A DNA stretch of 64,000 nucleotides. It comes from Ruditapes philippinarum. Taxonomy: Eukaryota. Below, piece after piece: positions 26,104 through 59,220 of the stretch. The translations under genes were made by a program, and so were the position numbers. The notes below the pieces were generated by a model that made no database searches, had not been told where the DNA came from, and was given only the letters and a program-made list of their open reading frames with translations. The stretch is taken from the NCBI RefSeq assembly GCF_026571515.1, contig NW_026861034.1:1-64000 (forward strand). The letters are read 5' to 3'. The stretch's first letter is position 1, and every line of letters begins with the position of its first letter.

Positions 26104-27452
26104 AGCCACTGACCTCCAGATGGTAAAATGAAAAAAAAAATGAAATAAAATTTCAAGTAAACAGTAAATACTGATCTAGTTAGGTTTATTGTATAAATCC
26201 ATCATCACTGACACCTTAATTCAAGAAAGAATGTTGACAAAAGCGTTAATTTATCGGGTTTTTCTTTTCCATAATCTACTACGTTACTAACGCAGTAGCA
26301 ACTATAAATAGGAGAAGATAATTCATTTAACGCGGTCACGTGTCACACCAGTGGTCCGGAAAAATCCCGGTATCCGGTATGCCCGGGATCGTTTATCAAT
26401 TTTCGTCATTGGGTAGGCCCCTATAACATTTCAAGCTAAAGGTTAAATCGATAAATTGGTCGTCATATATATGAAATAATTAATCAATTATAATATTTAG
26501 GGCCATGGATTACTACAAATATTAAGAGGATATTTTTTCGTTTTTCGTGAAATATGGAATATATTTTCACGAAACATGATAAAATGCCACATATTTTCAC
26601 GAGCCGGGACGGAGAGTGAAAATATGTGGCATTTTATCATGTTTCGTGAAAATATATTCCATATTTCACGAAAAACGAAAAAATAACCTTTTCATTTAAT
26701 TTCATTATCAAAGAAAAATGGTTACGAACCCCCTTGCTTGCTACGCAACTACAATTGTACAGCGTGCAGTAATATAATTATTTTCTTGTTTTGCACGCGA
26801 TATTTAGCGCTACATTGTGACGTCACGTAAACAACTCTTTTAACGTCTGTACAGCGTTAATATATGAATTAAAGATATTGGTGTTCGGATTAATTTTCTT
26901 AGTTAGACCATTTTCTATCAGTCTAGATAGTTTTCAAAACAAAATTCAACAAAAAGATTTTTGTATTTATCAGATTTTTCAAACAAAATGGCGAAAGAAG
27001 TCCTTTAAAATAAATATGAGTTTTGACTCCGCCCACTTTCATATTTATATTTCATATTTATTTCTAAAAAATATGAAATATATTTGACTGATATATCACC
27101 ATATTTCATGAGTAAAATTAAATAAAAAAACAAATTAAAGCAATTATTGGTATCCCTATATGTTTGATAAAATCCCGGATTCCGTGCGTTCCGGAGCACA
27201 GGTCGCGATATTGTCCTGTACGATCACGTGATAATAGAAAAAAACCCGGATGAAAGAATTCCGTGGTATAATAAAAGAAGGTTATTCCCGTTGGTGGAAA
27301 CGCGAACCGTTTGTTTTTAGAGAAATAATGTTAAAATATGAACATTTTGAAGTGTCATTTCGTTTTCTTTCAACAATATAATGTTTTTGAGGGGGGATTT
27401 TGAAATATTAGCAAGACGCAGTTTTTCTGCTATCTTCTGGAGGTCAGCTGCT
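26104..27452. mobile_element. Kolobok-type non-autonomous DNA transposon
   Basis: TTAA|AGCCACTGACCTCCAGA ... TCTGGAGGTCAGCTGCT|TTAA. Absent from copy 1 (~18725). Confidence 0.8.
26520..27125 (+). mobile_element. Palindrome-bearing (Crypton-like) non-autonomous element nested in the Kolobok MITE
   Basis: Near-perfect ~70-bp inverted arms (~26528-26688) around CGAGCCGGGACGGAGAG. Boundaries are approximate. Confidence 0.55.
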
Positions 27453-30400
27453 TTAAGAAAGTACAAACATCACATATTCTACCAATAAATCATTACACTT
27501 TGTTAATATTTGTTAGTTAACCTTCCATTGTCTCTCATAAAGTAACTCAATCAAAACGAGTCTGTAATTGTCACTATTAAAGTGTTCTCCTTTACCTATA
27601 TGTCCATAAGTTTTAAATCGAGTGTGCAATTTTCAAATAATATTGCTGTTTTCACTGCTTCTGAGAGATCATCAGTTTTTCAAGATTTTTTTACTTCATA
27701 ACAACAGGTGAATACATTTTGTTGTTGCCTAAATAATCACATGAAAAGATTTTTGTCTTAATTGTGCATATAATCATAAGCTGTAAAAATGCACCTTTTT
27801 TCTGATTAAGCCTTAATATAGAAGAGTATTAGTAAAATGTTTGTTTAATTAACTGGGACGAACATAAATTGTAATTTTACTTTAGAAAAACACAAATCAG
27901 ATAAACACTTCTGTTTAAAAGAAGCCTCATTCCATTTATTTATTTTTCTTAATACTTATAATCAGATTTAACGACATTATTGATTTGATGCTTTGTCTGA
28001 GACAACATGTTAACAGTGCATTTTATAAGATTTTAATTGAATAGAAAGGACACATGTGAAGAGATCAAAATCAAGAACAGTAAATATGCTTAATAGTCTA
28101 ATCATTTCTTTTTTGTAAATACTCCTACGCTGTTCATTAAACAGAACATCGATTAGTCATTTTGCTGCCAATCTAGCCGGCGGTAAGCTACAATTATCCT
28201 TTAGAAATAATAAACAATGATTATAAAGAAGGACTTTTTTCGCCGTAAATATTTCGTTAACTGTAACTGAATGATTGCTTGACAATTTAATTTTCTGAAG
28301 ACAGAACAAGTAAACAGAACTTGAATTGTTAAAAGCTCGAATTCACGCGCATCCAGGAAACATAATAAACTGTCAACATTTATCATTGAGACTGTTGATT
28401 GTGTTTGAAGCGCAATTATGTACCAAGACGTTGCTTTTAAAAACCTCTTGATAAATTCAAAGTGACCTTCAATTCATTGACATTTGAAAATGGAATGTAA
28501 TACCTTTCAGAGAGGGCGATCAACCTTTACTTAGCCTTTAATGTCAATTTCTGATAGTTTACTGTTAAAGATCTGTCCTCAATTTGCCTTGTTTCGTGAA
28601 CACTATGCTTACAACATACTTAGTATGAGAAATGGAGTGGAATTAAAGTTATTTTGATATGTTCAACGTGACCTTCGTTGTAAAAGATATTTCTGCAATT
28701 AGTCGTGTTCCATGAATATTATGCCCATAACATACTTAATGTTTATAATTATACAAAAGGAATTGAAAAAAGAAAAAAAGGGGTACAACTGAATGGGATG
28801 AATACACTGTTTGTAAAATGAAAGGAAAATATATAAACTTGAAATAGACTGAATATTGTTTTGTTTGAAGTGAACGAAACCAAACTCCAATGTGGCATTC
28901 ATGTGGCAGTCCGTTATTCAAAAGAACAAAACTTTGCCGCATTGTTTGGTCCCGCGAACAAAATGACGTTCAGATAGTAATTGTTAATTGATATCGTTAA
29001 GTGTAAATATGTGCGTCAGCAGCTTAGTGTGTTGCCAATTAAAACACATATTTAGAAACATTTTTTACAAATAATAACAATTGAAATGGCATAATAATTA
29101 GTGATATTGAAACGTTTGTTATTCAGAAAATGCGTTGAAATCAAACAATCTATTTATCTTTTTTGTAAGTGAAATGTCAAAATAAAAAATGTTTGCAGCT
29201 TTTGAGGAAGCTAATACAATGTTAGTTGTAACAATATCTTAATAAGGCATTGAATTGTCTGTGAAAGGTGCAGAGAAAAGAAAAGAATGCAGTTTATATT
29301 AAATCAATTGCAACAAACACTCCCCCCACAAAGATATAAGAAATAATGTAGTTAATTTTAAGATTGTGTAATGTTTATTGCATGCAATTGCATCGCTTTC
29401 AAGCAGAGAAAAAATAGTTTCTTACGAAATATGATCAACAGAAATGCGGAATATGCATAATCAGGTCTCACGTTATCTAATGCAAAGTTTCAATCAATAT
29501 CCTAAGAGAACGATTCCGAAAAGTACAATCGGTCGTTCATTTACATTGAAATAAATTTATAAATTCACGGCCAGCATTTATAAAAAAAACGGAAGTTTGA
29601 GAAAGCTGCTTGATAGAGTGGAAATGCAGTCAAGAAGTTTCAGAACAAAATGTAAATCATGGTGTGTTAATGTCAATTATTAGAGATTAACTGTAGAAGA
29701 TGTACTTGTTCAGTTAAATACTTATTGTCCAAGCAGTTAATAGAGTTTGACAAGCTTTCCGATCAATTGAATGCACATCTTCTTACCAGTGATCAAGCAG
29801 AAAAAAGAGTAACAGTGGGATAGACCAGGTACAGAACACGCCTCTTCATGCTTTAAGGCAACATAAAATAGAGGAGTAGCAGTAATGCACACACATGGTA
29901 AATGACTGTACTCGTAAGTATTAACATTAAGTTACCTTAGGTTTTCAAATTAACTTGGCTTAGTATCACCATTACCTCTTTCTAGGAAAAGTTGTGGCAG
30001 GAACGTAATCTTGCCGGATATCAGCAAAATGTATATGTTTCAAATTAAAGCTGAATTGACTATCTAATACAGACGATTGACCGTTATAATGGTAATTAAT
30101 CAAAAGTATGTGTCATTGATAGACACGACAGTAGTAGTGTTTGTAATGACCAGACTTGCTTTTTAGTATCTAACAATTTCGAAGTCACTGTTGTAGTTGA
30201 ATTTAGATTCTTAAAAATTTTAAAGGACAAATAAAAAGTGCAAATTTAGAGAATATTTATGGATCAGTTCAAAATACCTGTCCAATACATGTCATACCTA
30301 CACACTAAAGAAACTCAAGCAGATGATATATCACGAGGCACAACATTTGAAGCATAACCAACTCTAGTCGGTGGTGGCACGACCCTAAGTGTCCTTTCAG

Positions 30401-31669
30401 CTTTACTTTTGCTTTGAAAAATCGAAGTTAAATAGTTAAAAATAAAGTCATTTAGAATGTTTAGAATTGCTATAAGCTTAGAATGTATTACCCCTTCTTG
30501 AACGGCATTTAAAAAATTGTATATATTATGTTCATGCATGAATGTCATGAGTGAAACAACAACAATTAGATTTGTTTAACCATACGCCACGAAGAAAGGA
30601 AATTTAATCTTGCGCAATTAATTATTTTCGCTTATTTTACAATACTGAAGGTAATCATACCAGTTATTAAAACAATTTAAAAAAAAAAAATAAATAAAAA
30701 AAATAATATACGGTGGTCAACATGTTTTTATGTATGGGCCCCTAAAAAGTAAGATTTGTACTCAATTAGATAATTTTGTGAAGCAGAAAACTCAAAAATC
30801 AAACATACCTATTCCTTATTGCATATATTCATTATATTCAATTATTTAAAGGGCGTTCGACCATGCTTTAATAAAGATACTGTTGATTTGCTTCAAAAAA
30901 TGGGCATAACAAAAATCACTCAATTACTCTGAATAGCCATTTGAGCTAAAACACGAAGCTCTATACTCACATCAAATAGTTCCGTTACAAAACTAACGTA
31001 ATCAAAAGTTATCTGCTCGAATTCTACTTTAGTGACTCCACTAAGATATTTTGACAGATGAATTGTAATTAAATAACCTAAAATACAGGATTTTACAAAA
31101 ATGAATTATCTTGTTTACGAATGCGGTTATTATACAGCTATTAATTCTAACAAAATAATTACTATCATATTTTCTTCCATGTTTACTTCAAATATCTGAC
31201 GATATGATAGACTTCCTTATTGAGAGAAACATCAGCTCAGCAGTTACAGAAAATTTAATAAAATATATTAATTTTTAGGGTTAATATTTGTATTCATTTT
31301 ATTTCATTCTTAGTTCATAGGAGAAAAGTACAATTTCTGTGTTCTGTTTTTAAGAAATAAATTTAATGAATGTACCAATAATTAACTAAAAAAGCTTTCA
31401 GTCAGATAATATCATCAGACTGATTTGATTTATGGGCCAAATTTGTCTTGCTCTTACAAAGGTTTCATTAGCGGTTTCATACTTTAACATTTACTTAAGA
31501 ATAACAGCATTACAACTCAGTGCATTCCGACCATTCATAACACAACTTGATAAATGAATATTTAAAACCTTTGTAATACTCATTTCTATTTATATTACAA
31601 TACATAAGCTGTCGGTAAAAGGGAAAATACGTCTAACTCAATGTACGTATGGAATTCTTCTTACATATT

Positions 31670-32435
31670 AACTAGAAATGTGTCGCCACGCCACGGATGC
31701 CCCTTCGTGCAGCCAAACTTTCAAATGTTATAATATTTAGTTCCAAATTTGTTTTCACAAACTTTTATTTTCATTCTAAGTCAAAAGCACTTAAAACTAT
31801 TCAATGTTAACACAAACTATATTCATACAAAGTTCAATGCACTGATACTTTTTAGTCATAACCTTTTGTAAATTGCATATTGCATATTTGTAGCCAAAAT
31901 AAGGACTACATAAATTTCCATAAAAGAATAAGTGCTGAAACTGAAAATTCCAAAATTTTTCGAACATTCAAGAGAGATAACTTTTGTTATTGAACTAGGA
32001 CCAATTCACCCTTGAACTGCTTTTTCCTAAGATGTATCTGCTTGTCAAATTTGGGTCCTATTCGAATCCTTAAAGTGGAGGTAATGCATTACGTGGCTCC
32101 GTGGTCGAGGGGTTAGAGTCGATGACTTCTAATCCAGTTACCTCTCTGGCATGGGTTCGATCCCCGGGAGATGCTTTGGTAGTTTAGCACGGAGGAAGGT
32201 AGTCTAGTACCGGTGTAGCTCTCCAGGAACGATGGTTAGGAAACTACCCGCCTATATGATTGAAATACTGTTGGGAAAGGCGTAAAATGCAACAAACAAA
32301 CAAACAAACAAGATGATCATTTCTGTATAGTTTTATTACTATTTGCCGAGTGGTTTGGCAAGAAATATCGTTTAGGTTAAAATGTTCACGACGGAGGACC
32401 AACAACGGACATTGTGGGTTCACAATAACCTTTCA
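31670..32435 (-). mobile_element. Helentron-associated/pearl-like element remnant containing a SINE
   Basis: The minus strand ends GGGGCATCCGTGGCGTGGCGACACATTTCTAGTT, with an ACGGA/ACAAC microsatellite-like block at the other end. Confidence 0.5.
32093..32311 (+). mobile_element. tRNA-derived SINE with (AAAC)n tail
   Basis: A-box GTGGTCGAGGGG (32101), B-box GGTTCGATCCC (32154), 3' end ..GAAATACTGTTGG..GGCGTAAAA.. followed by an AAAC tail. Confidence 0.85.
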
Positions 32436-32824
32436 CGAGGAAGTTTGTTATATTTTTCATGGAATATACAAACAATTTCTTTGACTCCAGAATATCGAAG
32501 AAAATTAAATTTGTCAGAAGCATTTAATGATACAAAGATACAATTTCACCCAACTATGTAATTTAGGATCTTTCCTGAAATGTCATCTCTTTTTGCTTTA
32601 ATGAATTGTCAAACTTTTGAAAAATATCACGAAAAGAATACTTTTAGTTCATTGTTTACAATAACTAATCAAGTTTTAATAACCATAAATAGGAAAATAA
32701 TATTTTATTACTATTGATAGGTATTACGCAATAATTGGATAAAAGTGTCCAGTACGCCTTCCGCGAATGTGTGGTTAATAATTCACTAAAACAGTGTAAC
32801 AATTTGGAAGTGTTTAAGTTGTAT

Positions 32825-32852
32825 AATAATAATGATAATAAAAATAATAAAA

Positions 32853-32892
<40 letters not shown>

Positions 32893-32905
32893 TGATAATA
32901 ATATT
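32825..32905. repeat. (AAT)n microsatellite
   Basis: Direct AAT run, the source of the poly-Y ORF 32665..32910. Confidence 0.95.
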
Positions 32906-33364
32906 ATCATATATTAATGAAAGTAGATCGCCTTGTGAATATATATTTAGTACTTGGGTTGATGTGAAAAATGTTTGAGCAAAAAATCACTCATAAGTTC
33001 AAAATCGCATCCATTTTTTAGAAAATAAGGATACGTTTTTAATATGCTCTTAATTAGAATGAATTGATGTTCTTATATTGTATTTGTCCTATCACAGACA
33101 GTTGTTTGTGGTACCAATGCACTTTTTGCAATCTTTTCAAGCTTTGGCGATTCAAAAAGTAATAAAGTTAACTTCAATTCATTCTGACTTTTTAAATTTT
33201 ATTGGTGCCAGTTTTATTGTCATGAGCAATCCTGTCGTTTTTAAAGAAACTGATTTAAATCTATTGTCCGAAATTGTAGGTAGGATAAGGTATCGCTTAA
33301 ATCAGAGAAAACTTGGAAGTTGATGAATGAATGTGATACAACCAACCAGTGATCGGGCTATTGA

Positions 33365-33760
33365 ATTACGTTTTATTGTATTATAGTTTGGAGACCTTTC
33401 TGTTGAAAATGTGTCAGGGTTAAATCGTATACATATACATGCACAGTGCGTTAACTGGAGTGCGGGTATTAGTTACCCGCACTCCAGAGCATGCCCATTG
33501 ATTGGCTCATTTTTGCTGGGGTTTACATATTGTGACGGCAGAGAAAGGGAAAGCGACAGAAATGTCATATTCAGATGTTCGTTCATTGGTTCATTTTTGC
33601 CGGGGTTTCATATTGTGACAACAGGGAACGTGCTTTTATGTTTGACTATGATACAAAAGAGAAAGAACACCAAAACACTCGGCAATCTGATTAATACTCG
33701 GAGGCTACGCCCCCTCGTACAAATCAGATAGCCTCGTGTTTCGGTGCTCTTTCTATTACT
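33365..33760 (-). mobile_element. Palindrome-bearing (Crypton-like) non-autonomous element
   Basis: Hairpin 33662-33752 centred on CTCGGAGGCTACGCCCCCTCG, a second perfect 14-bp hairpin at 33455-33487, and an internal ~40-bp duplication. Confidence 0.55.
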
Positions 33761-35749
33761 TGTAGTTCTATTCTCAGTATACTAATCTAAATATATTCAC
33801 AACTTCTATCCTCGTCAAAGGCAGTATTTCCTGTCCCTTTTTACTTATGAAACCGATATCCAACAGTATGGCTGTTGATAGTTCATCTTGACATTTATTG
33901 TATGCAAATACGAAGGCTTAATTGACTTTTATGGCAGCGGACAGCATCTAGCCAATGTAAACCTTTATCATTTGAGAACGATTAAATAAAGGAGTATCTG
34001 TAGCTGAACAAAAAGTACATTTTCCAATATGGACAGTATGGTTCAGTTACCATAACTCAATATTGCGATTTCGTTGCGATTTACATAACCGAGAAACAAA
34101 TAGTAATACAGCATAGGTTTAATTATGATTGTTTGGTTGAACATGAGCAAACTAGTAAAAGAATAATAATAGAAAAAGACATGGGTAATTTGGAAATTTG
34201 GAATGTTTCTGCAATATGTAAAATTCAATCTCAAAATGTATATGGCAAAGAAAGCGCATTTTATGACAAGAAGGCCAATGCTAGTAACAAAATCCCTGAC
34301 TATCCATCAAAAATATTAAGGTTACATATTTTATTAGTTGAAGATACTTTTGTCACAATGATGTATGTTATCTTGGTAAATTCACATATTTTCTGATTTT
34401 CCACAGGTTCTTCTTTTCACTGATGTTCTGAAATTATTTTTTTCAGGGAAATTCTAAGTTAATTAAGTGACATGAAAATAAACCAAAGCTCGTAGTAAAT
34501 ACCCAGACAACCAAGATCTATAAATCTGTTTGATTCCAATATGTTACTATATTTTACACTAATGATAAGATTTAATCTTATTGTTGAAGTGATTGGTATG
34601 TCTGGTGCAACATGTTAAGCTACTATGCCCTTTGTAAGATGCTTATTAAAGGTGACAAACAAAAGTAAAGTAGTAGACTATAAAGAGTAATTTCATGTTA
34701 TTTATTTGACCGCTTATTTCTTGTTCCTGATACGATTATTTCTAATTAAACGGAAGATCGTTTAAAAACATGCTAATATTTTCTTTTAAGAAATAATAAG
34801 CACATCTCCTTTTAGGAAAACAGCAAACTATATTAAAGAAGTTACTGATTTGCAATGAAATATATTTTCAGCAGGGGCATTATTAGTTGACTGTACCTGA
34901 ATGATAAGTTTTTATCTGCGACACAAAACATGTGAACGAAAAAGATATAAAAATATCCCTTAAATTAACGGATGGCAGTCATGTGGCCAAACATTGCTCT
35001 TAAACTTATTAATAAATTAGGAGGATGTTTACTTTTCTTATGCAATAACTAAGCACTTCTAAAATGAGCCATTATTCTTCATAATTTTTATGTTATTAAT
35101 CTCAATGATAGACTTAAGGGTGAAGGGTTCTTAAAATTAAGTAAACATGCTGTCATAAATGTGTTAATGTTTCCATGTAAGATAAGTATTAGGCAGTGTT
35201 ATGAACTAGACGTGTGTCATTGTTAAGAGATATTGTGTAGATATGTGTTAATCAGTTGTAACAGTTTGATATCAACTTGGTTAAATGATTGACAAAACAT
35301 CGACATGCACAGAAAATGTTATTTTTCATTCCATTATGTGGCCCGACATAACAACATTTTTAACCACTTTTTTCCGTGACTAAATGCGAGTTGTAACAAA
35401 CAAAATAATGTACATTTGTATCATACAAAACAATTATAAAGCTGGTGATACACACAGACTGTATTGTTTTATCATAACATAAAGACGGTTTATAAGGACA
35501 CATGCAGAAGTATTCTTAAGAATATTATAAGGCAAGCGTAAATTATGGTTCCCATCATTTCAGTTTTGTTGTTTATCCTGTCCCAGACTAAAGGTCCTAT
35601 AAATCTTATTAGTTGATAAATAATTTAGTTGAAGCGAATCGAGTTAGAAAATAAAATGTATATATAAAAGGTACAGTATCAATATAGTGGTTTGATGGAA
35701 AAATAAACCTGTTGCTTATTTTATGAACATGGTAAATTCATAAAATTAC

Positions 35750-36050
35750 ATTTGCATGTACAGACAATCAATCAATGTTAACAAATTCGAAAGCTGCCAG
35801 AATTCATAACCTAATACGGCTAATAAAATGCCAGACCATGAGACATGTACAAACAAAATACAGTCTTCATAAATGTCAATGAAATCAATTCTTGATTGTG
35901 GGTAAATGACTTGACATAACATTATTTCAGTTATTGATAAAAGTTCACTTCTTGATTGCGGGTAAACGAAATATTTTACAGTCTGCTGATGAGATATATC
36001 ATCGATTGATAAAGCTGAAAATGTGTATGTCTTTATAATGTTTAATTTAT
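35750..36050 (-). pseudogene. Ancient LINE ORF2 relic (RTEX-like)
   Basis: ORF 35746..36054 has VKY and GILLAVLGYEFW, resembling ILNYAAEIW of the LINE at 6.1 kb. Confidence 0.35.
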
Positions 36051-36540
36051 CCAATTATTATTATTCCCCTGTTATCATTCTTTAATAGTTGACGGATGTA
36101 AATCTGTAGTTTCTGATAAACATCGGTTAAAAAAAAATGAAAAAAATGAAAAGAAAATGTTTAGATCCTAGAACCAATTTTATAGCTGTTTGTTGATACT
36201 TAGTATGTTGTACACGCACTGATAATTGAGCAAAACTTTTTAATATTAGTAAGTTTGTCAGTGCTTCGCCAATTTAAAAATACGTTCTTTAATGGTATAA
36301 CTGATTTATTTGTTGTTTTGTTTCTGTTGTTTGTTTATAAGATAAGAAAAGAAATCAATCCATCAATAAAAGAATAAAAAGGCTTTTTGTTTGGTAATAT
36401 CATTATACTGACTCCATTTATTCTGAAAGACCTTGATGAAGACAATTTGTCTTGCTCTAACAAAAGTTTCATTAGCGGTCTCATACTTTACATTAACTTA
36501 AGTAGGATCACATTACGATGAAGAGCATTCCTGAAAATAT

Positions 36541-36749
36541 GAGCCGCGTCATGACAAAACCAACATAATGGGTTTGCGACCAGCATGGATCCAGACCAGC
36601 CTGCGCTTCCGCGCAGTCTGATCAGGTTTCAAACTGTTCGCTATCAGTTTCTCTACTTGTAATGGAGTTGGTAAGCGAACATCATGGATCCTGATCAGAC
36701 TGCGCGGATGCGAAGGCTGTCTTACGTTGGTTTTTTCGTGACGCGGCTC
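36541..36749. mobile_element. Sola-type MITE
   Basis: TIR GAGCCGCGTCA / TGACGCGGCTC with long internal inverted arms and TSD ATAT. Same family as 22609-22730. Confidence 0.88.
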
Positions 36750-37849
36750 ATATTAGTTATTTAAAGAGAATAACAATCACAAAACATACTGTTTGACTGA
36801 TGAATTACACTAAACTTGATACATGTTTATACAACGGCTTCTTTATTACTTAATTCATTTTGATGGTAACTGTAAATGTAATTATTTTCTTGTTTATATA
36901 AATACTGTATATACCTTGTGAGAATTTAAGACGCATGTTAATGACAATTATTTTTGTTTGGTATAAAAGGCATTTCAAACTTTCAAATTCATGAAAATCA
37001 CGTAAGTCAAAAGACCAGGAGGTAATGTTATCATTATGGTACTTTACATAGAGATTATTATATCGTAAAATCAGAAGTCGTAGCGCAAAGGTAAGAATAC
37101 ACTGAATAGACACAAAGAGTAATATTACTGTATCTCTCTACTACTTCTATGTTGTTAAATCACATTTTTCTCTTGTGATAAATATAGTAAACTAATGTAA
37201 CGTGGTGACCGTAAACCGTAAATGAAACTCAACTATTGCAAAGAATTTCAAATTATACATCTTGCAAATAATGTCATGGCAACGTAAATATTTCGTTTAA
37301 GTGCATCCAATCCCATTAACAGTAAACAGTTTATTCACCCCCCTGACCTGGATCTTATAAATATACAATTTCTTGACATTCAGTAATTGCCTGTTTGTCC
37401 TGTTGCTAAATGCATTGTCTATTTCCATAATATATAATGCCGAAAATGTTGGGAAGACTTTAATGACACAGACATGCAATTAAACCTAAAACTATCATAC
37501 TACTTGAAATATGTTGTCCTGTTACAGTGACTGTTTTCTTAAACTGTCATTTAAATTTTACATCTAAATATCTATAAAAATGAAAAAAAGATGAAATTGT
37601 TCATGAAATAACGTGCTTTAACACACTTAACAACCAATACGCTATTTAAATGAAATTGAAGCTGATAACAATATTAGCAAATCATATTTCCTTTTCAGAA
37701 GTCAAATGTACTTGTTTGCGACTAAATCTGATATTATGACGCCACTTAATTTGAGAAGTAATACGCTTATATGTTCATTCCTTGTTGAGTTTTATGTCAT
37801 ATGGTAAAAGGTCACAATTTATGCGATAAATTTTAGTAAATATTGGTAA

Positions 37850-38110: not shown

Positions 38111-38325
38111 ATGTGAGGATACATTTAATTTATTACATAGATAATACACGTGGAGCTCAGCTTGCAGAGACAAATGAGTACACAGTAACCTTTTGATATC
38201 CTTTTAACTCTAAGAAAAATGTCAATTATTAATTGCTGACTGTTTATATTTTCTAGAAAAAGTAAGCAAAACATTATTTTGTTTCATATGACAGGAATGA
38301 ATTGCATTAATACATTAATACATGG

Positions 38326-44596: not shown

Positions 44597-45099
44597 TTTG
44601 TGTTCATTAGACAATACATGTCCTAAATTTGTTTAAAGTCTTATAAGTATTATGCAATATAAAGTAAATATAGGATCTCACATGTATTGTCATCGAATTA
44701 AAAGAGAAAAAAGTTGCTTTTTGTCCCCAAATATACCATTTTTAATTTCAAATTTATATCTTTATATGCTGCTGACATGGTTTTCATCTTGGCAAGTATC
44801 ATGTCTCTAGATTTAAGCTCAGAATATTCACGTTGGTAGACAATCAATTAACTATAGCCATTGAGGTGTCAGATATGAAATGGAAGGGAAATTAGTGTCA
44901 TGATCCTGTATTGAACATGGTGTTGTATGTACAGATTAAAGTCAGTAGTCCGCGTATTGATAGCGGTGAGAAAGATAGAAGATATAGGAAACAAATACAA
45001 AAGCTTTATAATACTTTATCAAATATATAAATATACATCATTTTACAGAAGGATATGACATCATATGGTTTTCTTGCACATCACACTAGTGTTTCCTTC

Positions 45100-45370
45100 G
45101 TTTCATCCATGCCGGAAAATTTATTTTGCATGCGGCTTTGCCAGATGAGTCGCGTGCTTTAAAATGCATAAAACTAATGAAAAGGCTGGTTTCATTCCGT
45201 CGTAATGATTGAAAATGTTAATTTATACGCTATTGTAATAAAAAAGTAACAAATGAAATGATAGTGATTTAAATAAAATAAATATTTATGAGGTAAAGCA
45301 TTTAGATTATTGTTGAATATGGTTGAATATGCAAAAACGTCATGTTTTGCAGTTCGAATCGGAACAGCAT
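45100..45370. mobile_element. Degraded relative of the 50030-50405 element
   Basis: Shares ccatgccggaaa, ccagatgagtcgcgtgct and gaatatgcaa...gttcg.atcggaa. Confidence 0.65.
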
Positions 45371-47559: not shown

Positions 47560-47666
47560 CAGAAGGCCACATTGGAAATAAGATATATATGATTGTTATT
47601 GTATGTTCTTAATGTGTAACCTTCTTTAAATAAAGATATTATTATTATTATTATTATTATTATTAT
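47560..47666 (+). mobile_element. 3' end of a LINE/SINE with (ATT)n tail
   Basis: GAAGG.CACATT..AATGTG..CCTTC stem and AATAAA, followed by (ATT)n. Confidence 0.55.
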
Positions 47667-48281
47667 CACGGTTTAAGACTTCAATAATTACAGTCATGGA
47701 TTTATCAGGTATGTTATTATGAGCATTAGGAGATTATTCGTAATTATAATAACATGTGTTTCAGACATGCCAGTTACGTAAAAGATCCTGTAACACATTT
47801 TTTTCATGGATTTATTTCATAAATATGATGCTCAAATTAAGATTTGTCAATATTGTAAGTTCCAATAAGCATTATTTATAAAGATATTTCCCAATTTAAT
47901 ATTTCATGTAAATAAAGGGAGGTAATTAGAAATCTATTTTCTGTAAATTCTAAGTCAAATTTTCCAATAAGAAATGAATGCATGTAATTTATTGATTAAA
48001 TATAATATGCACATATATTTGCAGTACACATTTTACATATTCTTTGATGTTTGAAAATTGTTTTATTTGCATAATTATATACATATATAACTTTTTGCGT
48101 GTGTGTTCAGCTTAAATTATTTAATGAACAGTATGTTAAGATTATTGCATACGCTCTCGAAAACATTCAAAAGGTGCCCGGACAGCATCATACCTCACGT
48201 AATTTAGTCTTTTCAAGAATGTTGTAGCCTATCTCGGTTACCGTGTCTGTTGACATCACCTGTTGCCGGTAAACAGTTCGT

Positions 48282-49200
48282 TTTATTACCCCTCACTTTT
48301 TTCGTAATGTTAATTTCCCATAGGCCTCTGGGAGTTATTCTTACTGTTAATGCAAGTGTACCACGTGACTACGAATTATGTACTGTTACATAGGTAACAG
48401 TATTTTTTAACAGTATAAAATCTGGTCACGTGGTCTATTTTCTAAATAAAATGAAATCAAATGGCCGCCATTTTTTTTCTCGATTCATTCTTATTTTCGA
48501 CGATAGGGCATCGCCGAAGTAACTATTACTCTGATAAAATTTAGTTCTTTGCACCCTAGAGTCCCTTTCGCGTATTAAATATCTTTTTGTTGAATAGTCA
48601 ACCGGAAACATCCGTTTTCAACGGAAGTAATTGTAATGTAAATAATTTTGTGTCAAACTGGAACATACAGACAATTAAATCATGCAACAAAGGATAATTC
48701 AACAATTTTAACCAGTGAAACGTTACAGATAGAGTTGGTGGACAGACATCTGTAGGATATCATCGTTATTTTCTAAATGCACTTTGTCAAAAACCATGCG
48801 ATGCAGAAGGATCAGATTTCACAGATCATAACCTTATAAATGGGTTAGTGTTTTGTTTTCTGAATAAAACACAGCTTATTTTATGTTTATGACTGGTAGA
48901 TATCATCACTTGCCTAAAGAATAAAAGAAAAACAGCTTCTCAAGTAGGCCTACAGTGCACTTAAACTTTCAAGGTAAGGACAGTTTAGTTATTGCTTCTC
49001 TTGGCTTTTTTTTGTTACAGTTAGATTTAGTTGACAAATGCAGATCATCACAGTATTTGTTCGGGGTAATAAAATAAATAACACATGGGTTTGTGGGTAA
49101 CAGTAAAAATATCATCCCTCGTATAAATACTGTTAGTATTTTCCTCGGGATGATATTTTTACTGTTACCCACAAACCCATGTGTTATTTATATACTATTA
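48282..49200 (-). mobile_element. Palindrome-bearing (Crypton-like) non-autonomous element
   Basis: Hairpin ~49079-49185 with its centre deleted. Both ends match 58910-59220 in reverse orientation. Confidence 0.65.
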
Positions 49201-50029
49201 CTATCAGTGGGATAATATATTTATACATTGTTGTGCCTTCCTTCAGATAACGATTCTTAAAGGGGATTATAGTTTCGTTGTTGTTCTGTTTCATTTACAC
49301 ATCAATGACACTAAGTCTGATATATTTTTTATTATTCAAATTCCTCTTTTCTATGTTATTATATTAATTTTATGTCTGTTCTAATGCGATTTAAATCCGT
49401 AACTTATATCCGTAACTCGTACTTAATATAACTGGTTTGAATACACATAAGGTAACTAGGCTAATTTACTAAGTCATAGAAAAATGACCTCAGATATACA
49501 AAAAAGAAACGTAGCAAAGCCGATCTCTGAGCCAAAAGGTATAGACTGGTGTATAAACTTATCTTATAATTTAGTTTTATAATAGGATTTCGAGCGATCA
49601 TAAAAAAGCCATACCAACAAACATGTATGACTTACGTTTACATTTCTTTCTTTTCAATATATCAAACTATCGTTTTAAGAAATACAATCGTGTATTCATT
49701 CATTAAGTGAAAAAGATTACAAGAGAGTTTGTCTGCCGGTAGAATTCTTCCTAAAATGGGGCAAAATGCGGTCTTTGCAACATTCTTGCCATATTGGCTA
49801 ACAATTTGAACTTAGTTTAAATTGCTTTCGTTTCAATGTGTCGGTATATCCTTTATGAAGTTAAATTATTTATAGAACAAAACAAAGCTTGTCCTTGGAT
49901 GAAGTTTGACCACCAAATCTCAAAATCGTTAAATTCTACCTAAGAGAGGGCATCGACGGCCTGTGCGACATTCTGACCATATAGATGATAAATATTTCTT
50001 GCATATCAGACTGGCGTTTCCGTTAGTTT

Positions 50030-50405
50030 TACCCATGCCGGAAATTTCATCTGGCATGGGGGGTTCCAGATGAGTCGCGTGCTGTACAATGGCACGATAA
50101 AGATGACGTCATTTTACCGTTATGAATGATTTTGTAATTCATACGCTGTTGAATGAAAGTAGTTACTGTTGTAATGATATAAATTTTCATTAAAAATAAA
50201 GATAAAGAATTTAAAATATAATGGAATATGGTAGAATATGCAAGAAAAAATATCTGACATATGTTTGCGGTTCGGATCGGAATATCCGTCCCTCGGTCAC
50301 CCGCCCATGGGCGGTAACTCGGCAAGCCTCGTTACCGCCCAATGGGCGGGTCACCTCGGGACGGATATTCCGATCCGAACAGCAAAATATGACAGATATT
50401 ATTAA
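50030..50405 (-). mobile_element. Palindrome-bearing (Crypton-like) non-autonomous element
   Basis: ~70-bp inverted arms (~50249-50400) centred on CTCGGCAAGCCTCG. Confidence 0.65.
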
Positions 50406-51416
50406 TATAGACCGCTGAAAAAGCATTTTGTTCCGACACGTAGGATATTTCATATTGTTTCATTATCTAAACTTGTACATTAAAGAAAAATATCTGCAAT
50501 AAATATTTCTTTTATCATAAATTATCTCATTTTATTTAAAGATCATGTTACACAAGTTTTTATGGTTTTAAATCATAAATATAATGCTCAAATGAAGATT
50601 TATCAATATTGCAAGTTCTAAAAAGCAGTATTTGTAAAGATATTCCCGAATTTACATTTCATGTTAATAAAGGGAGGTAATTAGCAATTAATTTTCTATA
50701 AAGGCTAAGTCAAATTTTTCAATAAGAAATGAATGCATATATTTTAATGACTACATATAATGTGGAAAAATATTTTCAGTACATATTTTACATATTCTTC
50801 GATGTTTGAAAATTGTTTTGGAAGTATAATTATATACATATATAAAATTTCACTAAAGTGTTGTAACAACCTTAATTACAACATACAGGAACTTTAAAAT
50901 ATTTTAACTGACGTTAAATCAGCTTACCTTTTTGTTGTTAAATCAGCTTACCTTAACAAAAAGATATGTAATGTTAACTGATGCAATCGACGATTCGAGG
51001 AGTTTTTTAAGGGGGAAGAGCGAAATGAGAACATATTAATATTATAACACTCAACACGGCATTATAACGGAGTAAGAAAATAATTTCCGTAAAAAGTGTA
51101 TGAACAAACGTATCCAACTGAATAATTTGTTCTTCCCGAATATCTGTTAAATAGTTATCGATTTTCACAATATTCTCCCTTGCCATTATCAATATTTGAT
51201 TGTTTTTGTAAATTGTCACATTTCAAAATATTATCATAGTATTAATATGTAAATGTTTTTGAAGATGGTAGAATTATGAATTTTTGTTATCTTATCTTAA
51301 GCATATTGAAAATAACCCTCAAAATGGCAGCCCAGTGGATGTAACAATTCTTATGATAAAAAGCATTTATGTTGGTACGTAGTAATAGAGAAAAGCAGAA
51401 TCCCTAAAGAAAGCCC

Positions 51417-53696
51417 TGAAGGAGCACATTTGTCTCGGAGCACATTTGTCTCACGAAGTGTGACCGATGTGTTCGTAAACATTCATATTTGCGACAAATT
51501 GGAAATGAGACAGATGTGTTCGACATACAATAGAAAGGGCATTCGAAGCACATTTGTCTCACATTTTTCCATAAAATTCTTAAAAGGTAATAATTATGCC
51601 CGTCCGTTTACCGGCAACCAGCCATTGTTCTGTGTTTTCTGTATTTATAAAACCGTTTTTAGGTCACTTCCGGTCAGTCAAAAACGTCCTGCCTCTGCAT
51701 AGGAGTCATATAATTAAATTAAAGAATATCCCTGTTCTGCATGTCACAATGAAAATTTCTACAAGTGCAGCATCCAGAACCTAAACACATATGCAGCAAG
51801 TCTATTGTTATCGTTATCAATTGTAATACGTTTATTTTCAATGCTTTAAGTTTTATAAATGATTTATGGCACTAGAAATATTCTTAGAAAAAAACAAGGT
51901 AGTATCTACGGTGGCATAAAGGGGACATACAATTTTCTTATTTATTACGTGCGCACACGATAGCTTTTACGTGGTCACGCGATACTATTACGTGCGCCCG
52001 CGATAGCTATGACGTGCGCTCGCGGATATGTATTCCGCATTTGGACACTGACCGGGATCCTCGCAAAGTTCGATGAATAGTTCGATGCCCCGTGTATATG
52101 TCGAACCTACAGCGGTTAGGGACAAGTGTTTTTTTTTTAAATCAATCGGCCACGGAGGCCCTTAAATGATCTATGGAAGAAAATAAGAAGACCATTACAC
52201 ACGTATTTTGTTTTCATCAGAAATATATGTATGTAAAAATCGTCATTTTCCAAGAATTGCGGCTTTCAGATCCGCCATTGAAAAAGCACTTACAACATGT
52301 ATATGAGTTCCTAAAATAATCCGGGTAATGCCATAATTATGGAATATCGGACCACTCAGAATCGTGCGAGACGCGACATTCCGATGAGACACGAAGCGAG
52401 GCACGATATTGTAACACGAGATCTCGCAATGTCGAAGTATCCGGTACCACGAAATTTCAGAAATGAATAAATTTTTACTTCTTTAGATAGAGCAAGTATG
52501 AATTTACTAATATTCAAATAATGATTTCTGAGGAAGTTAGATGCTTGTAATCTAAAGAAATTCGCGATATATATGAAATAATGCGTCATAAAAGTAGCAA
52601 AATGTAAACAATGTAGTATTTTGACTTTAATATAAAATTCTAAATCACTTCAACTGTACAAACTGCAAAAAAGCAGCAGATGAAAAATGCTTTAGGTAAT
52701 TAGCCAACGAGTAACTTTTTGGAGCTATAAAAGTATACCAAAAATTCAAAGCTTTTAAGGAATACAAATAAAAGCATTTCTCAGGCATAATGGGCCTTTA
52801 AGTGATTTTATGAAGACTATAAAGGGAATACTAATTAGCGGTATATGACCTGGAATCAATTTCTTGTCTTGCGTCGAGATGCGAAGCGAGATTTCGGCGA
52901 GATGCGAAACGAGTCGCGATATTGTATCATTCAATATCAACCGAGTACGGTGTTCCGTTTGGACATAAGTAACATTTTTGACTCCTTGAACAGCTATGCG
53001 CACTGGTACAAAGGTGAAATTGAGATGGTACGATGATTAAAACACGATGATGCGATGACACGATAGAGGAAATAATATCGCGTTTTCATCATCATGCCAT
53101 CGCAGTTTCATCATATCGTACCATCGCATTTTCGCAATCGTAACATCGTCTTTCACCATAGTATCATCAGGTTTTCATCATCGAACCTTCGTTGTTTCAC
53201 CATCGTACAATCGTTGTTTCACCATCGTACAGTTGTTGTTTCACGTTCGTACCATTATGTTTTCACCATCGCACCATCGCGTTTTCATCAACGTAACATC
53301 GTGCCACCGCGGTGTCACCATTGTACCATCGTGAACGGGATTTAGAGATATTATGATTATAGTTCACTTTAGGTTTTCATAAAGAAAGCATGAACAAACC
53401 TATTGATCATTACACTTGACATGAGGTAAAACGGTGAATCTCAATTCTTAAAAAAATTTCTGCCGACAAATAATTTCTAAAAAATGACATGAGACAAATG
53501 TGCTTTCTTGTCCCTTAAAGGAACATGAGACAAATGTGCTTTCTTGTCCCTTAAAAATATTGATCGGAGCACATTTGTCACACAAATGAGTTTTTTGGGG
53601 TAGACATTTGAGGTCCCATTTGTCTCGTGTGGGACAAATGCGACTGCATTGGTCTTACGTAAGACAAATGTGCTCCGAGACAAACGTGCTCCTACA
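51417..53696. mobile_element. Non-autonomous TIR element with TG..CA ends, 6-bp TSD and nested MITE fragments
   Basis: TIR TG(A/T)AGGAGCAC.TTTGTCTCGGAGCACATTTGTCT, TSD AAGCCC at 51411-51416 and 53697-53702, and subterminal CACATTTGTC repeats. Confidence 0.85.
52946..53335. mobile_element. IS3EU-like MITE fragment nested in 51417-53696
   Basis: TACGGTGTTCCGTTTGGACA terminus and TTTCACCATCGTAC units, as in 20851-22049. Confidence 0.65.
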
Positions 53697-56600
53697 AAGC
53701 CCAACATGGCATAATTGTTAAATGTTGCAGGCTCGGTTTGATTGAACCTGTTCATGGATGGTACTGAAAAGTGCAAGTTACCGTCCACGCCCCTAGCACC
53801 AGCTTAAGCAGAATACATCATTTAAACACAAAATGGTGGAATTTTGAATTTAGTTACATCCGCAGATGTGTTCATACGGCGGTTGTCATGGAACCTTCAA
53901 TGTGACACAGAAGTGTCATTCCATGAAAAGCGGCGTATGGTCCCCAAGTCAAAGAATGCGTGTGCCCTAAACGAGAAACAATGGGCGGAACTAAATAAAA
54001 TGGAATTTTGAAATGGGATCTGAAGTTATAAAGCCTGCATATCACAGACAACAGAACGTAACTGTTTATATCTTAAAGCTAGTAATACTTGAAGGCAAAA
54101 TTGCAAATAGTTAAATTTAAAGGATTTTTTTCTTAAAAGCGTAAAAATAAATTAGATTGTGAGTAAATGTAATTAAAAAGATAGATTTCATCAAGGAACA
54201 CGTCCATACGTGAGTTATTGCAATATTCAATTTACCCTTATCTAAGAACAATGAAAATTGAGTTTTAAGCAAAGCGGTAAAAGGCTAGATGAACAGATAA
54301 TTGATGAACATTAAATTGTATCAGTGTAGTGGAAACAATGACATCGGTATGTTTGTGTGAATTAAAGAATGATTAAAAAGTTCCTTTTTAAGGTAATTGG
54401 GACTATATACTGATTAAAAAGAACTATTCCGTAAAATGCTTGACGGTATTTAATGAGAATTTTATCCAATTAGATTTTAGTAAGATATACATGTATAATA
54501 CAATTAAATTGAACCTAAATTCATTTAAGAACTAACCTACATACTACAACACTGACACATGAAGTAAACAAAGTTAATTAAACTGTGACAGTGACATGAA
54601 TGTTTTTCAAGCCGTTTGATGTAATACCATACAATAATTTACCCAACCCTGTTTCAGATGTTCTCGCATCAACCACATTTTTTCCTATTTCATAAAAACA
54701 TAAAAATGAAAAAAATTCCAAGGAGTAACGGTTATCAGCCGTAACGTTGAATTAACCATTGACAAATTAATTAATAATTAATTCTAAAAACGCCCTCGTG
54801 ATATAATTCCTCGCATCCGAACTCCAAACAGTGATGTTATTGAGCGATAAAATCACTGTTTGGGATATATCTTTTCTTAAATGAATATATGAAAATAAAT
54901 TGAAATACATGTAATACAATGCTGCACCTGAATTTATTTACGGTATAATATAATTCCACAAAAAGGTCATATAATGCAAATCGGAACACCTACTATTACT
55001 CATGAAAATCTCTTAATATGGACTGAAATTGTTCAACGACGTTGTGTTTTAGATGTAAACAAAAACAGAAGATGACATCTCTGTATCATGTTTAACTAAT
55101 TTATGCATTTGACATCTAAAGGAAAATAAAGGAAACAGTCTTTTACGGCGAATTTATGATTAAAACAATATGTATGACAATCATAATCACTTGAGAAAAA
55201 GTTCAGTGATGTACAATTATGTCGACATATTTCTATTTTGTACTTTCGGTTTGTATAACCATACCATAATGATACTAAATATATGAAAAATGTAAGGTTT
55301 ACCTTTATATCTATAAATTTTTGAAATTTATGCGACATATTTGAATAAACTAAGTTAGCAACTCTCATCATTTAATTACCATTTCTTTACATGTAGTTTC
55401 TTAGCGTAGGTTACATCGAAATGTAGTACTCTTTCTTCTTTGTTCGCGGTTTTTACTCTAAGATAGACGGAAATGACGTAAAAGTTGCGATTGATATAAT
55501 GCCGGTCAAACTCAAATTGAAAACATCAAAAAATATATGTGATAATAATTCTGAAGTAGAAAGAAAGTTGTCAAGGGATATTGTAAAATGTAAAAAGAAA
55601 TCAACTTAACATAAAATTTATTATCTTGCATGAAGAATACTTTTAAAATATAATAATCGTTTGATTTAAGAAAGATATAAAGAGAACATTTTTATTGCGA
55701 ATCAATCAAAATAATTGATTGTTAAAGTAATAAAAATGAAATTGAATGCCGGACAAATTATCAAAATCCGTTGTATATATGTAGCAAAATGACACCGTGT
55801 TTCTCTTGTTAATGTTTTTCTTTGGATGAAACGTTTAGGTTAACGAACTCTCAGACAACTTGTAAACAACTTTATATGCCAGAGTACATAGTTTGTCTAT
55901 CCTGGTGTTATAAAGAAGTAAATTACATACATTTTACAATAAACAGTCATATATTACGCTATTTACTCTTGATACTACATACATTGACAGCTGTCGTTAT
56001 TATTTCGTAAATAAATTATGTAGAATATGAAATGATTTTTAACGAATATTTAGATAATCACTCAAGAGGACTAATAGAATGACCTTAACGAGAGATAGTT
56101 ATCTAAAGCAGTTCTCACTGGAATAAGATGACGTCTAGAGAAAATGCGTGTTTCATAAGCGTTAATACGAAATATTTGAAAGGGGTGTCCTTGTATGAAG
56201 TTTGACAAACATAGACAATACAACTGGTAAAGTTGTATAAATTAAAGACACGAGAATCATGTATTTGGGGTTTAACACTAATCTTAGTAGACTGGACATA
56301 TAGCTGCAAACATGGACTAAAATACGTACATAATCCTATTGATCAGCCAAATCGTCTGTAAACAAAGATAACAAATATTTGACAGCGCATGGACAGCTGT
56401 TTGTGAACACATTGACAACTCAAGGAAGTTACAAATCAATATTTCTAGCAGAATACCAAAATATTATTTCTCTGAAGTTATCACAGCCAATTCAACTTTT
56501 ACAGGGTTACGTAATTACTGTCAACAGAAGCAAATACTTCTGTTGCACGTAATGTACTCATATATTTTAAAATGTATCTATCTGCGTGTACAATTCATAT

Positions 56601-57190
56601 AACTCCTTTTTTCATGATGTATCTTTATAATTTATTGTTGATTAAAATATTCGGCTTATGATATGTACAACGACCAGTGAACTAGTTTGAATGATAAAGT
56701 TTGTCTTTTAAAAGCTATTTTTATCATGGAAAGCAGACATTGAAAGCGTTTGCAACATTTTTTATTAAAACATAATAATACAGTAAAATTCGATGGTGCT
56801 AATTCTCTGAATGAAGACAGGAAAATACATTCCTTCTTAATTTACTTCTTATATGGAATATACTTCTTATAAGGAACATTACTGTCGTCTGTTTATTAGA
56901 ATTTGTATATTAATCAACAATGCAATATTAAAGAAATACTCTGAAGACAATTGAATGAATGATGTTATAAGAAAAAATGACACATCATATCGAAATTACT
57001 TTTTGAATAGGTTATTTGTCAATTGTGATTATATTTTTACGCATCTAAAATCTGCAAGTTAAAGTTCTTGAAATTCATGAAAGATCAATATTAAAATCAT
57101 TTCCAATTAATAAGATAAATTAATCTAATCCAAAAGACAAACTAAGTTTTTAGAGTAGATATAAACATCGGCATAGACGTTTATGAAAAT

Positions 57191-57720
57191 CTGGAAGAAG
57201 GGTGTTCACTTGGAAGAATTTATCATTACTTGGAAATCGCAGACTTGGTTTGATTGACTCTGTTCATGGGGGTTAATGAGAAAGTGCAGCATCTCTCACG
57301 CTCTCTATCAACGGCTTGAGGGGTACTCCATCTTCAACAATTTAAGTGTTGGAGGACCAGAAAATACGAAAATACTGAAATAAAGTAGGGGGCAATATTT
57401 TACAGCTGCCACACGGCACTTGACACCTGCTGCTGTGAAGTTCTGGAAGAAGGGCGATACCACGGAAGCAGTAATCCAACAAAATTTCATGAAAATTGCA
57501 GACTTAGTCTGATTGAGTTTGTACATGAGGGACAATTAAAAAGTGAATCATACATCTCCCACGCCCCATAACACTAGGTCATCGATACACAATTTTCAAC
57601 ACTACAAAGTGCTGAAATTGATGATGCCGGAGGAACAGAAAAATATAACAACTCAGAAGTGAAGTACAGGACAACTTTTTACAGTTGCCATACGACACTT
57701 GACACCTACTGTTGTGAAGT
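57191..57720 (+). repeat. Head-to-tail dimer of divergent ~252 and ~279-bp monomers sharing the family A core (subfamily B)
   Basis: CTGGAAGAAGGG at 57191 and 57443. Each monomer has GCAGACTT.GT.TGATTGA...TGT.CATG...CACG and TTTTACAG.TGCCA.ACG.CACTTGACACCT.CTG.TGTGAAGT. Confidence 0.8.
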
Positions 57721-58909
57721 ATGAAGTAAGTAAAGATTAAAATCTAAACTAAGTATTGATTATGAATTTAGATACAAATAATATGACTGTGACGATTCCG
57801 GATTGGAATCATTGACTTTTTAGGTTTATAAAAATTTACAGGATATAAAGGTTGACTAGATTTACCTATATTAAAGGATGTTATGATCAGTGTTCTGCTG
57901 TAGTGTGTTTGAAATCATTCAGTTAAGTTGTTATTTTGGTAATTGTAATTGTATGGAATACTTGATATTTGGTGGGAATCAAACATTTCTTTTAAACTGG
58001 AAAGTTATTAATTATTGAGTTCTGTTAAATCCTCGCCCAGAGAACCATGCAGCGTTACAAAACTCATCAAAGAAGTTTGATATTGCCAAATTACTAGTGT
58101 AAATTATTTCATTAGTGTTTTTAATTCATAATATTCTTGATAAAATTGTCCTAACGGAACTAACGGACGCAAATCATAGAACACAGAAAGGTCTATTTCT
58201 AGGCCCCATGGCTAAAATGTGTGACATGTTTAATTATGTGACATCCAAAAACCTTAAATGTTTAGATGCTTTCTTATATTGATTTGAAATTGATATGATT
58301 AACTGAAATATTTTGCACCTTATGCATTGGCGGCGCTTATGTGAACTAATACACCGTTGATGATATATGGTAAACAAATTGACGTTCAATGAACGTTACA
58401 TTGCCTAAGTTATGTAACTATACTATCTATTGTCATCTCTAAAATTAATTTTTACAAAATGTACAAGATACGTCAAATTTTGCATTTCTAAATCTTACAG
58501 CTATTAGACTAGGCTTATAATGTATTTAATGTCAGCTTCCATCAAATTTATGAAATAGAAATAGAGATAAAATTACAAATAATTTATCCGTCTTTGTATG
58601 GCATCTTTCATATCACATTAACATTATCTAGTCTGTTCTCTCCTAATTATTACAATTATAAAATAGAACTAGGCTAATGACAGAAAACTTTTGAAGATCA
58701 TTGATGTAATATATAATATTAGTGCAGAACCAAAAATGTGATAAAGACATTGAAAACAATGATCGCACAATTTCAAAATACTGCCACAGTCTGGGGGATA
58801 TACATTTACATGTAGCACGGGTTCCCCGGCCCTTACTGTTCGTCTTTTCCTCTTTCCGACTGCCCTCTGAAAACAATAAAGACTTACTCTCAGTGCACAA
58901 GTTAATGTT

Positions 58910-59220
58910 ATGAGATGGGTTTGTGGGTAACGGTAAAAATATCACCCGAGGAAAATACTGTTACCCGAGGCCTTAGCCGAGGGTAACAGTATTAATTACG
59001 AGGGATGATGTTTTTACTGTTACTCACAAACCCATGTGTTATTTATTTTATTACCCCGAACAATAACTGTGATGATTTTTTATGACTTTATTTTATTATC
59101 TTTAGAAAATAGACAATGTGACCAAATTAGTCGCAAGGTGCACTTGCATTAACATTATAAATAACTCCCGGTAGCCTTTGGGAAATAAACAATACACAAA
59201 AAGTGAGGGCTAATAATAAA
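58910..59220 (+). mobile_element. Internally deleted palindrome-bearing (Crypton-like) element, same family as 48282-49200
   Basis: Hairpin 58915-59035 centred on CGAGGCCTTAGCCGAG. 59130-59220 is reverse-complementary to 48282-48372. Confidence 0.7.

Follow-up and report, generated by a model that had tools for sequence, protein, structure and literature searches.

Five long DNA hairpins in the genome of Ruditapes philippinarum (Eukaryota) raise the question of whether a eukaryotic transposon can be inserted by way of a folded single strand. They lie in a stretch of 64,000 nucleotides (contig NW_026861034.1 of NCBI RefSeq assembly GCF_026571515.1, positions 1 to 64,000, forward strand), hereafter the window. 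An earlier note, made from the sequence alone, had pointed out CGAG tetramers facing CGAG inside these palindromes, had sorted the palindromes into four families and had proposed that they are attC-like folded sites for Crypton tyrosine recombinases, such as the one at 62.5–64 kb. The hairpins are the 5' ends of high-copy non-autonomous elements of four families (A to D). In all four, the inner arm of the hairpin runs on into the reverse complement of the last 10–13 bases of the element, hereafter the splint. The splint, which the earlier note had missed, is the main evidence for the mechanism set out below: judging from sequence, each hairpin probably forms a recombination site by the folding of one DNA strand, in the manner of the folded single-strand attC sites.

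Hairpin ends, their GA/GA modules and the recombinases

Self-comparison of the window returned the five hairpins at 26521-26695, 33652-33764, 49066-49201, 50246-50403 and 58915-59035, and their CGAG-facing-CGAG modules form 2x2 internal loops when the DNA is folded. The division into four families also stood, the 49.1 kb and 58.9 kb hairpins both belonging to family A (with the apex lost in the 49.1 kb copy). The AGAG at 26613 is a decay of this family D copy, 28 CGAG/CGAG loops being found in 29 family D copies. Outside the repeat array at 20.9-21.9 kb, the window contains seven hairpins longer than 100 bp, these five among them. The remaining two (22597-22742 and 36536-36754) belong to a separate family that has no GA/GA loop in any of its 23 hairpins, so palindromes as such do not entail the motif. 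Both come from a small, very common element that has long terminal inverted repeats, and they were used as a negative control. The array itself (20908-21950) consists of ~22-bp tandem units in both orientations, which build long inverted repeats, and is satellite-like.

In 949 kb of DNA (the window and fetched loci, the latter designated by L numbers), 276 hairpins in 47 families were found. The recurring 2x2 loop is GA/GA (or its complement TC/TC) in 20 of the 47 families and the next class in 3, in a sample that was fetched around families A-D and recombinase genes and is hence enriched, so that 20/47 is not a genome-wide rate. Across 17 reference elements, GA/GA accounts for 30 of the 37 2x2 loops, against 1.3% expected from base composition. 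A chance origin of the modules is excluded, and the enrichment over other mismatch types that the earlier note expected is observed.

The host genome is AT-rich (1.41 Gb) and contains from hundreds to about two thousand candidate matches per window hairpin; the read depth of families A and B is several hundred times the single-copy depth. The four elements, delimited from the 30 best-matching loci per family, measure about 950 bp (A), 409 bp (B), 384 bp (C) and 604 bp (D). Their ends were analysed on the copies that retain both anchors (26 for A and 29 each for B, C and D), the others being truncated or dropped. The hairpin is found at one terminus, always the 5' end on the strand that reads GA/GA, hereafter the GA strand. 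Reads mapped to 47900-50800 bear out the element ends and their abundance. Three old relatives of family B, 68-69% identical, lie at 18441-18626, 25818-26030 and 45069-45364.

The genome has 149 matches to the DUF3504 profile. The 10-kb stretches around 60 recombinase loci, together with the locus of the window itself (61 loci), were grouped into 17 multi-copy families (Y numbers) and several single copies. In 13 of these 17 families, one terminus, and only one, bears a long hairpin, whose GA strand points inward. Two loci, L205 and L206, encode a DUF3504 protein and share with family C the 5' 180 nt (85% in L205) and the 3' 58 nt (93%); as judged from these ends, they are the recombinase-bearing parent of family C. 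Palindromes of this type thus do occur on recombinase-encoding elements, as the earlier note had supposed. Families A, B and D have no ends in common with the ten recombinase families compared. Among the aligned recombinase proteins, 10/10 match DUF3504 and 9/10 Phage_integrase; the R of the F-G-x-R motif is invariant, as is NHS, followed by R or K, and the later H and Y are found in most rows. A structure model of the recombinase (predicted local distance difference test, pLDDT, 72) matches the folds of Cre, XerH, Tn1549 Int and IntI, IntI ranking below Cre and XerH. A tyrosine-recombinase fold and residues of R-H-R-Y type, both traits of Cryptons, are therefore present. Taken as a whole, the elements almost certainly represent Crypton-type transposon ends, by a direct link for family C and by shared architecture for A, B and D. 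Another family of recombinase elements, Y13 (5-8 kb; L195-L200, L203), has collected other hairpin elements inside it, pieces of family D included.

While the link to Crypton recombinases proposed in the earlier note stood, the enzyme that it had suggested did not. The remnant at the end of the window belongs to a different family, Y12, is broken and truncated, and is rejected as the partner of A-D. Its own hairpin end is missing in the window and present in its relative L192, and no match to the ends of A-D was found in the remnant or its two relatives. Where the remnant breaks off, an element with long inverted ends extends from 63957 to contig position about 64590 (L121 2957-3590).

A fold kept on one strand and a splint to the far end

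The base pairs that flank GA/GA co-vary (CGAG/CGAG 23, TGAG/CGAA 3, CGAA/TGAG 2, GGAG/CGAC 1, AGAA/TGAT 1). These five different Watson-Crick contexts indicate that structure, not sequence, is kept. In hairpins with at least two modules, all modules are on one strand in 157/157 cases (12 families), in agreement with the strand polarity described in the earlier note. The GA strand also carries more G.T than A.C mismatches (22 vs 6, p 0.004), and it carries the apex loop of G(N)1-2A type in 13 of 17 families, the opposite strand in none; the exceptions are B (C-TT-G), Y1 and Y2 (TCT) and Y5 (ATA). Very high stability in DNA is reported for GNA loops closed in this way (PMC13037366). In Y5, Y8, Y9 and Y16 the gene is encoded by the GA strand, and in nine families by the opposite strand, in line with the protein tree, where gene orientation relative to the GA strand follows the three clades (one sense, two antisense). 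With 4 sense and 9 antisense families, the fold tracks the element ends and not the transcript. The fixed polarity relative to the recombinase gene for which the earlier note had suggested a survey is hence rejected.

These observations bear on whether the hairpin might act in RNA, as a small-RNA precursor or transcript structure, or whether the pattern might be a mutational by-product in palindromes. Tandem GA and GNRA loops are stable in RNA too, according to PMC13037366, and the elements are abundant enough to be transcribed. However, an RNA role agrees poorly with a polarity that is independent of gene direction, with the absence of any Rfam match at gathering score in the whole window, by which a known structured RNA is also rejected, and with the lack of any reverse transcriptase family among the matches of the 10 aligned recombinase proteins. 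As for a mutational origin, L160, L165 and L167 have lost the mismatch to a perfect palindrome, so mutation erodes the pattern. Both explanations appear very improbable. In these three loci, the GA/GA loop became perfectly paired in either direction, as template switching in palindromes predicts.

An exact splint of 10-24 nt was found in 16 of 17 families (A-D and the 13 hairpin-bearing recombinase families). Among the latter, for which one copy each was tested, it measures 11-24 nt in 12; the splint of Y12 is 5 nt in the tested copy, and about 10 nt match by eye in the copy L193. In controls, searched with the same fixed window as the test sequences, the mean is 6.3 nt, and at least 10 nt were found in 2/270 cross-family pairs and 13/1500 random windows. 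An ordinary terminal inverted repeat was not found, the end-to-end inverted match being only 4-9 nt. On the GA strand, the element has the following order: L arm, stem with tandem GA/GA loops, apex loop, stem, complement of the L arm, splint, body and, at the far end, R arm. When the ends are joined and folded, one long duplex is predicted across the junction. The junction strand exceeds the splint by 2 nt in A, C and Y2, as read from head-to-tail copies, in D, as fixed by four empty sites, and presumably in B. Head-to-tail junctions are present in the assembly at L004, L082, L087 and L157, but can arise by insertion at the end of another copy. In a subgroup of family C (L065-L067, L083, L085, L086, L088), ~60-80 bp of the element's own 3' end precede its 5' end, so that a junction is embedded.

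Related recombinases were also collected from 41 metagenome loci, most of them short. On contigs of other base composition, a GA hairpin lies downstream of the gene with a 16-nt splint in L233, and upstream of the gene with a 10-nt splint in L226. Five other loci (L228, L251-L253, L261) show GA hairpins without a testable or convincing far end. No relatives were found in the viral contigs searched.

Insertion sites and a putative single-strand mechanism

Comparison with empty paralogous sites revealed no target duplication for D (L099, L102, L105, L119), A (L012) and C (L074); the empty sites of family B have diverged too far for the cut to be placed. At the termini of A and C, short direct repeats or microhomology were found. 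The host sequence on the 5' side of the cut is similar to the R arm in each of the four families. Such R-arm-like targets explain that the elements often sit at the 3' end of another element (L002, L004, L092, L100, L111). An L-arm-like motif is found 3' of the cut in the hosts, at +8 in A and D and at +7 in B, with T at +8 in 26/26 family A flanks (binomial p for the half-site offset 1e-7 or less, six bases having been tested and picked after inspection). In A, B and D, the distance to this second half-site of the target is thus intermediate: shorter by one base than in the joined ends and longer by one base than in the splint. The spacer of a duplex circle would exceed that of the targets by one base, whereas the two strands of the folded site bracket the target spacing.

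The insertion process can be tentatively viewed as follows. A single-stranded circle of the GA strand would join both ends of the element, and the junction would pair with the splint. This pairing would create a duplex R box and an L box, separated by an uneven spacer with 2 nt more on the junction strand. The recombinase would then cut the junction strand only, beside the R box, and the cut strand would be exchanged with one strand of a double-stranded target. Host replication would complete the insertion, as for integron attC and CTX phage attP(+). Sheared G.A pairs, G..A loops and G.T wobbles would mark or stabilise the strand to be used. The one-strand design common to the hairpins suggests that the likely substrate of the enzyme is folded single-stranded DNA, as in bacterial integrons. 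The wider proposal, towards which the balance leans slightly, is that animal Cryptons may be eukaryotic single-strand transposons, in which a folded-strand site is completed when the ends meet the splint, one strand is exchanged and replication copies the element in. They would represent an independent invention of the integron mechanism, with sheared G.A as the strand mark.

The same sites can be read in terms of a classical Crypton, excised as a double-stranded circle. The palindrome and the far-end copy inside the element would then be extra duplex binding sites that aid complex assembly, like the arm sites of lambda or Tn916-type integrases, and folding would be incidental. Such a circle is assumed in the working model published for Cryptons (the model of Goodwin, cited after PMC3212892). 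The direct repeats or microhomology of A and C agree with it, as does the presence of Tn1549 Int, which has circular intermediates, among the fold matches, and the flanks of family C do not support the folded spacing. Enzymes like the Tn1549 integrase tolerate mismatched, variable crossover regions, which would absorb a spacing difference of 1 bp. However, duplex binding leaves unexplained why GA opposite GA, with co-varying flanks, is kept in unrelated arms, why G.T wobbles and G..A loops (13 vs 0) accumulate on the same strand, and why the internal copy lies flush with the hairpin and completes the junction. This explanation is considered improbable.

Likewise, the fold might be real and serve another step, by extrusion of a cruciform from supercoiled duplex, by priming of second-strand synthesis or by protection of a single-stranded intermediate, while recombination would occur on duplex DNA. 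GNA mini-hairpins resist nucleases and are found at single-strand priming origins and in the N4 promoter, as described in PMC13037366; moreover, the stem (100-200 nt) is far longer than a recombinase needs and either strand can fold. However, the splint rebuilds exactly a crossover site with a conserved uneven spacer, which a priming or shielding hairpin does not need, and the target spacing falls between that of the two strands in A, B and D. A role restricted to another step is thus possible and rather unlikely.

Several observations weigh against the proposed single-strand mechanism and its generality. First, the two strands fold almost equally (ViennaRNA): the GA strand is more stable in 5/5 window copies, by 0.2-7.7 kcal/mol, and is ahead in 14 of 17 families, by a mean gap of 2.0 kcal/mol over the 17, but is less stable than its complement in Y7, Y8 and Y15. 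The statement in the earlier note that only one strand folds fully was not borne out; such all-or-none folding is rejected, as both strands give long stable hairpins. The folding model may undervalue sheared stacking, and sheared G.A stacking is reported to be unusually strong (PMC8163305). Second, in the flanks of family C, the predicted offset does not stand out as a half-site peak (0.25 at +6, with 0.34 at the junction offset +7 and 0.36 at +9). The homology just 3' of the cut is uneven, being clear in A and C and almost absent in D, and the +1 host base follows the splint in B and D and the element's own end in A. Third, no free circle was observed, and no empty allele or end-to-end joint is present among the read joints listed at 47900-50800; the junction of family B is inferred, not seen. 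Fourth, none of the 61 recombinase loci proved to be a parent of A, B or D, the matches to A and D in them being separate insertions, and the ends of Y6, Y10, Y14 and Y17, like those of most single copies, were not resolved despite extra fetches. L191 bears hairpins at both ends: unlike in the one-ended families, its recombinase gene lies between two inverted copies of one hairpin (3322-3417 and 6969-7082 in coding orientation). Finally, a GA hairpin with a far-end match was found in only 2 of the 41 metagenome loci, most of which are too short for both ends, and the families are related by ancestry, so that family counts are not independent.

If the proposed mechanism is true, single-strand recombination by a eukaryotic tyrosine recombinase would be new: IntI and XerC/D are the sole tyrosine recombinases named as recombining single-stranded substrates in the consulted part of a 2016 paper (PMC5027507). 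As far as the consulted parts of the Crypton literature go, there is only a proposed model for movement, and the ends are described as difficult to delimit. With the rule of hairpin plus splint, the ends can be placed exactly, the crossover and the strand used can be predicted, and copies without a gene can be assigned. A eukaryotic case of single-strand recombination could further be of relevance to the DNA preferences of domesticated DUF3504 proteins (ZMYM, QRICH1, KCTD1) and could point to a way of inserting single-stranded DNA.

The features of the window are given in the table below. Away from these, an open frame of 453 codons at 5968-7326 (+) with a reverse transcriptase domain (RVT_1, E 2e-18) is a fragment of a long interspersed nuclear element (LINE).

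Table. Hairpin elements, splints and recombinase remnant in the window
Feature	Position	Strand	Remarks
Family D non-autonomous element, about 604 bp	26519..27125	+	Hairpin at 5' end; 96% to family consensus
Family D terminal hairpin	26521..26695	+	Inner module 26600/26613 (one side decayed to AGAG); GGA apex loop
Family D internal complement of far end	26691..26702	+	Pairs with 27115-27125 (this copy has one change)
Family C non-autonomous element, 384 bp	33376..33759	-	Derived from the recombinase-encoding element in L205/L206
Family C hairpin within element	33657-33759	-	Modules 33678/33733 and 33697/33714; GTA apex loop
Family C internal complement of far end	33645..33656	-	12 nt
Family A non-autonomous element (family length about 950 bp)	48283..49194	-	End 48283 seen as loose read ends
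Family A hairpin within element	49074-49191	-	Apex deleted; module 49118/49144
Family A internal complement of far end	49063..49072	-	10 nt
Family B non-autonomous element, 409 bp	49996..50404	-	Loose read ends at 49995 and 50404
Family B hairpin	50246-50403	-	Modules 50292/50355 and 50318/50328; C-TT-G apex
Family B internal complement of far end	50236..50247	-	12 nt
Family A copy	58915..59221	+	5'-clipped and internally deleted; modules 58947/58999 and 58966/58978; far-end complement 59048-59057
Fragment of further hairpin family	61503..61597	-	79% to hairpin of recombinase family Y2
Broken Crypton recombinase element, family Y12	61930..63950	+	Stops and frame changes; cut off at about 63950

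Comparison with known systems

Animal Cryptons are described as encoding a DUF3504 tyrosine recombinase, with no terminal repeats found (n.d. in the supplement of PMC3212892). The present elements resemble those of Kojima and Jurka 2011 (PMC3212892) in their single DUF3504 tyrosine recombinase, in the 2-6 kb size of autonomous elements, in the much more abundant short derivatives that have both ends in common with them, and in the lack of ordinary terminal inverted repeats and of target duplication. In contrast with described Cryptons, for which only short direct repeats are given in the parts of the literature consulted (a 2026 CryptonA paper, PMC13465315; a curation guide, PMC8969392), a terminal hairpin of 100-200 nt, GA/GA loops and an internal far-end complement are the rule here. 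The strings "hairpin" and "palindrom" do not occur in the main text of PMC3212892, and no such hairpin is mentioned in the consulted parts of the CryptonA paper, a Repbase review and the curation guide. More generally, no description of hairpin ends or of a single-strand mechanism for Cryptons was found in the open literature; Repbase Reports, subscription journals, figures (e.g. the Eulor alignment, PMC5753468) and bioRxiv supplements lay outside the search and may hold one.

The attC sites of integrons, as described in PMC5027507, PMC2727003 and PMC4792948, likewise have a variable sequence and a conserved hairpin structure, with an outer R box, an uneven unpaired spacer, an inner L box and a terminal loop. 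One strand is favoured and selected by unpaired features, crossover occurs in the R box, and elements stack head-to-tail at R-like targets. The predicted folds of the joined ends show the same build (imperfect hairpin, R box, uneven spacer, L box, strand-asymmetric unpaired features) and support the comparison with attC made in the earlier note. However, the present elements are eukaryotic, encode their own recombinase (a DUF3504 protein, not an IntI-type integrase, with a fold that is not nearer to IntI than to Cre), and have neither an attI platform nor the conserved AAC crossover triplet, the crossover sequences differing by family. Their stem is longer, tandem GA loops take the place of the single extrahelical bases of attC, and the whole R arm lies at the far end.

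The attP(+) site of the CTX phage, recombined by XerC/D, is also made of two inverted site copies that fold on one strand (PMC4246890). According to the same source, its central regions are unequal (12 and 5-7 nt around a 6-bp target), and attP1 and attP2 bracket the dif spacing, as the folded site brackets the target spacing here. In contrast, CTX relies on enzymes of its host, obtains its single strands from a rolling circle and uses one fixed target, whereas the present elements insert at many loosely matching sites.

DIRS elements, as presented in PMC13465315, also combine a tyrosine recombinase with an internal copy complementary to the ends, but have a reverse transcriptase and inverted terminal repeats, neither of which is shown by the present elements. 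A DIRS retrotransposon is rejected, as no reverse transcriptase family is matched by the ten proteins, the long frames listed in ten families are pieces of the recombinase and there is no terminal inverted repeat. A Helitron/Helentron or a miniature inverted-repeat transposable element with terminal inverted repeats is rejected as well, since the partner of family C is a tyrosine recombinase, not a RepHel or DDE protein, and neither terminal inverted repeat nor duplication was found. The strand-biased circularising elements (SEs) of Vibrio (PMC9345347) are tyrosine-recombinase elements that circularise one strand only; unlike the present elements, they have inverted motifs at both ends and no attC-like fold according to this source. 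By the tests run, the elements are thus not integrons, DIRS or Helitrons and belong to the DUF3504 Crypton group.

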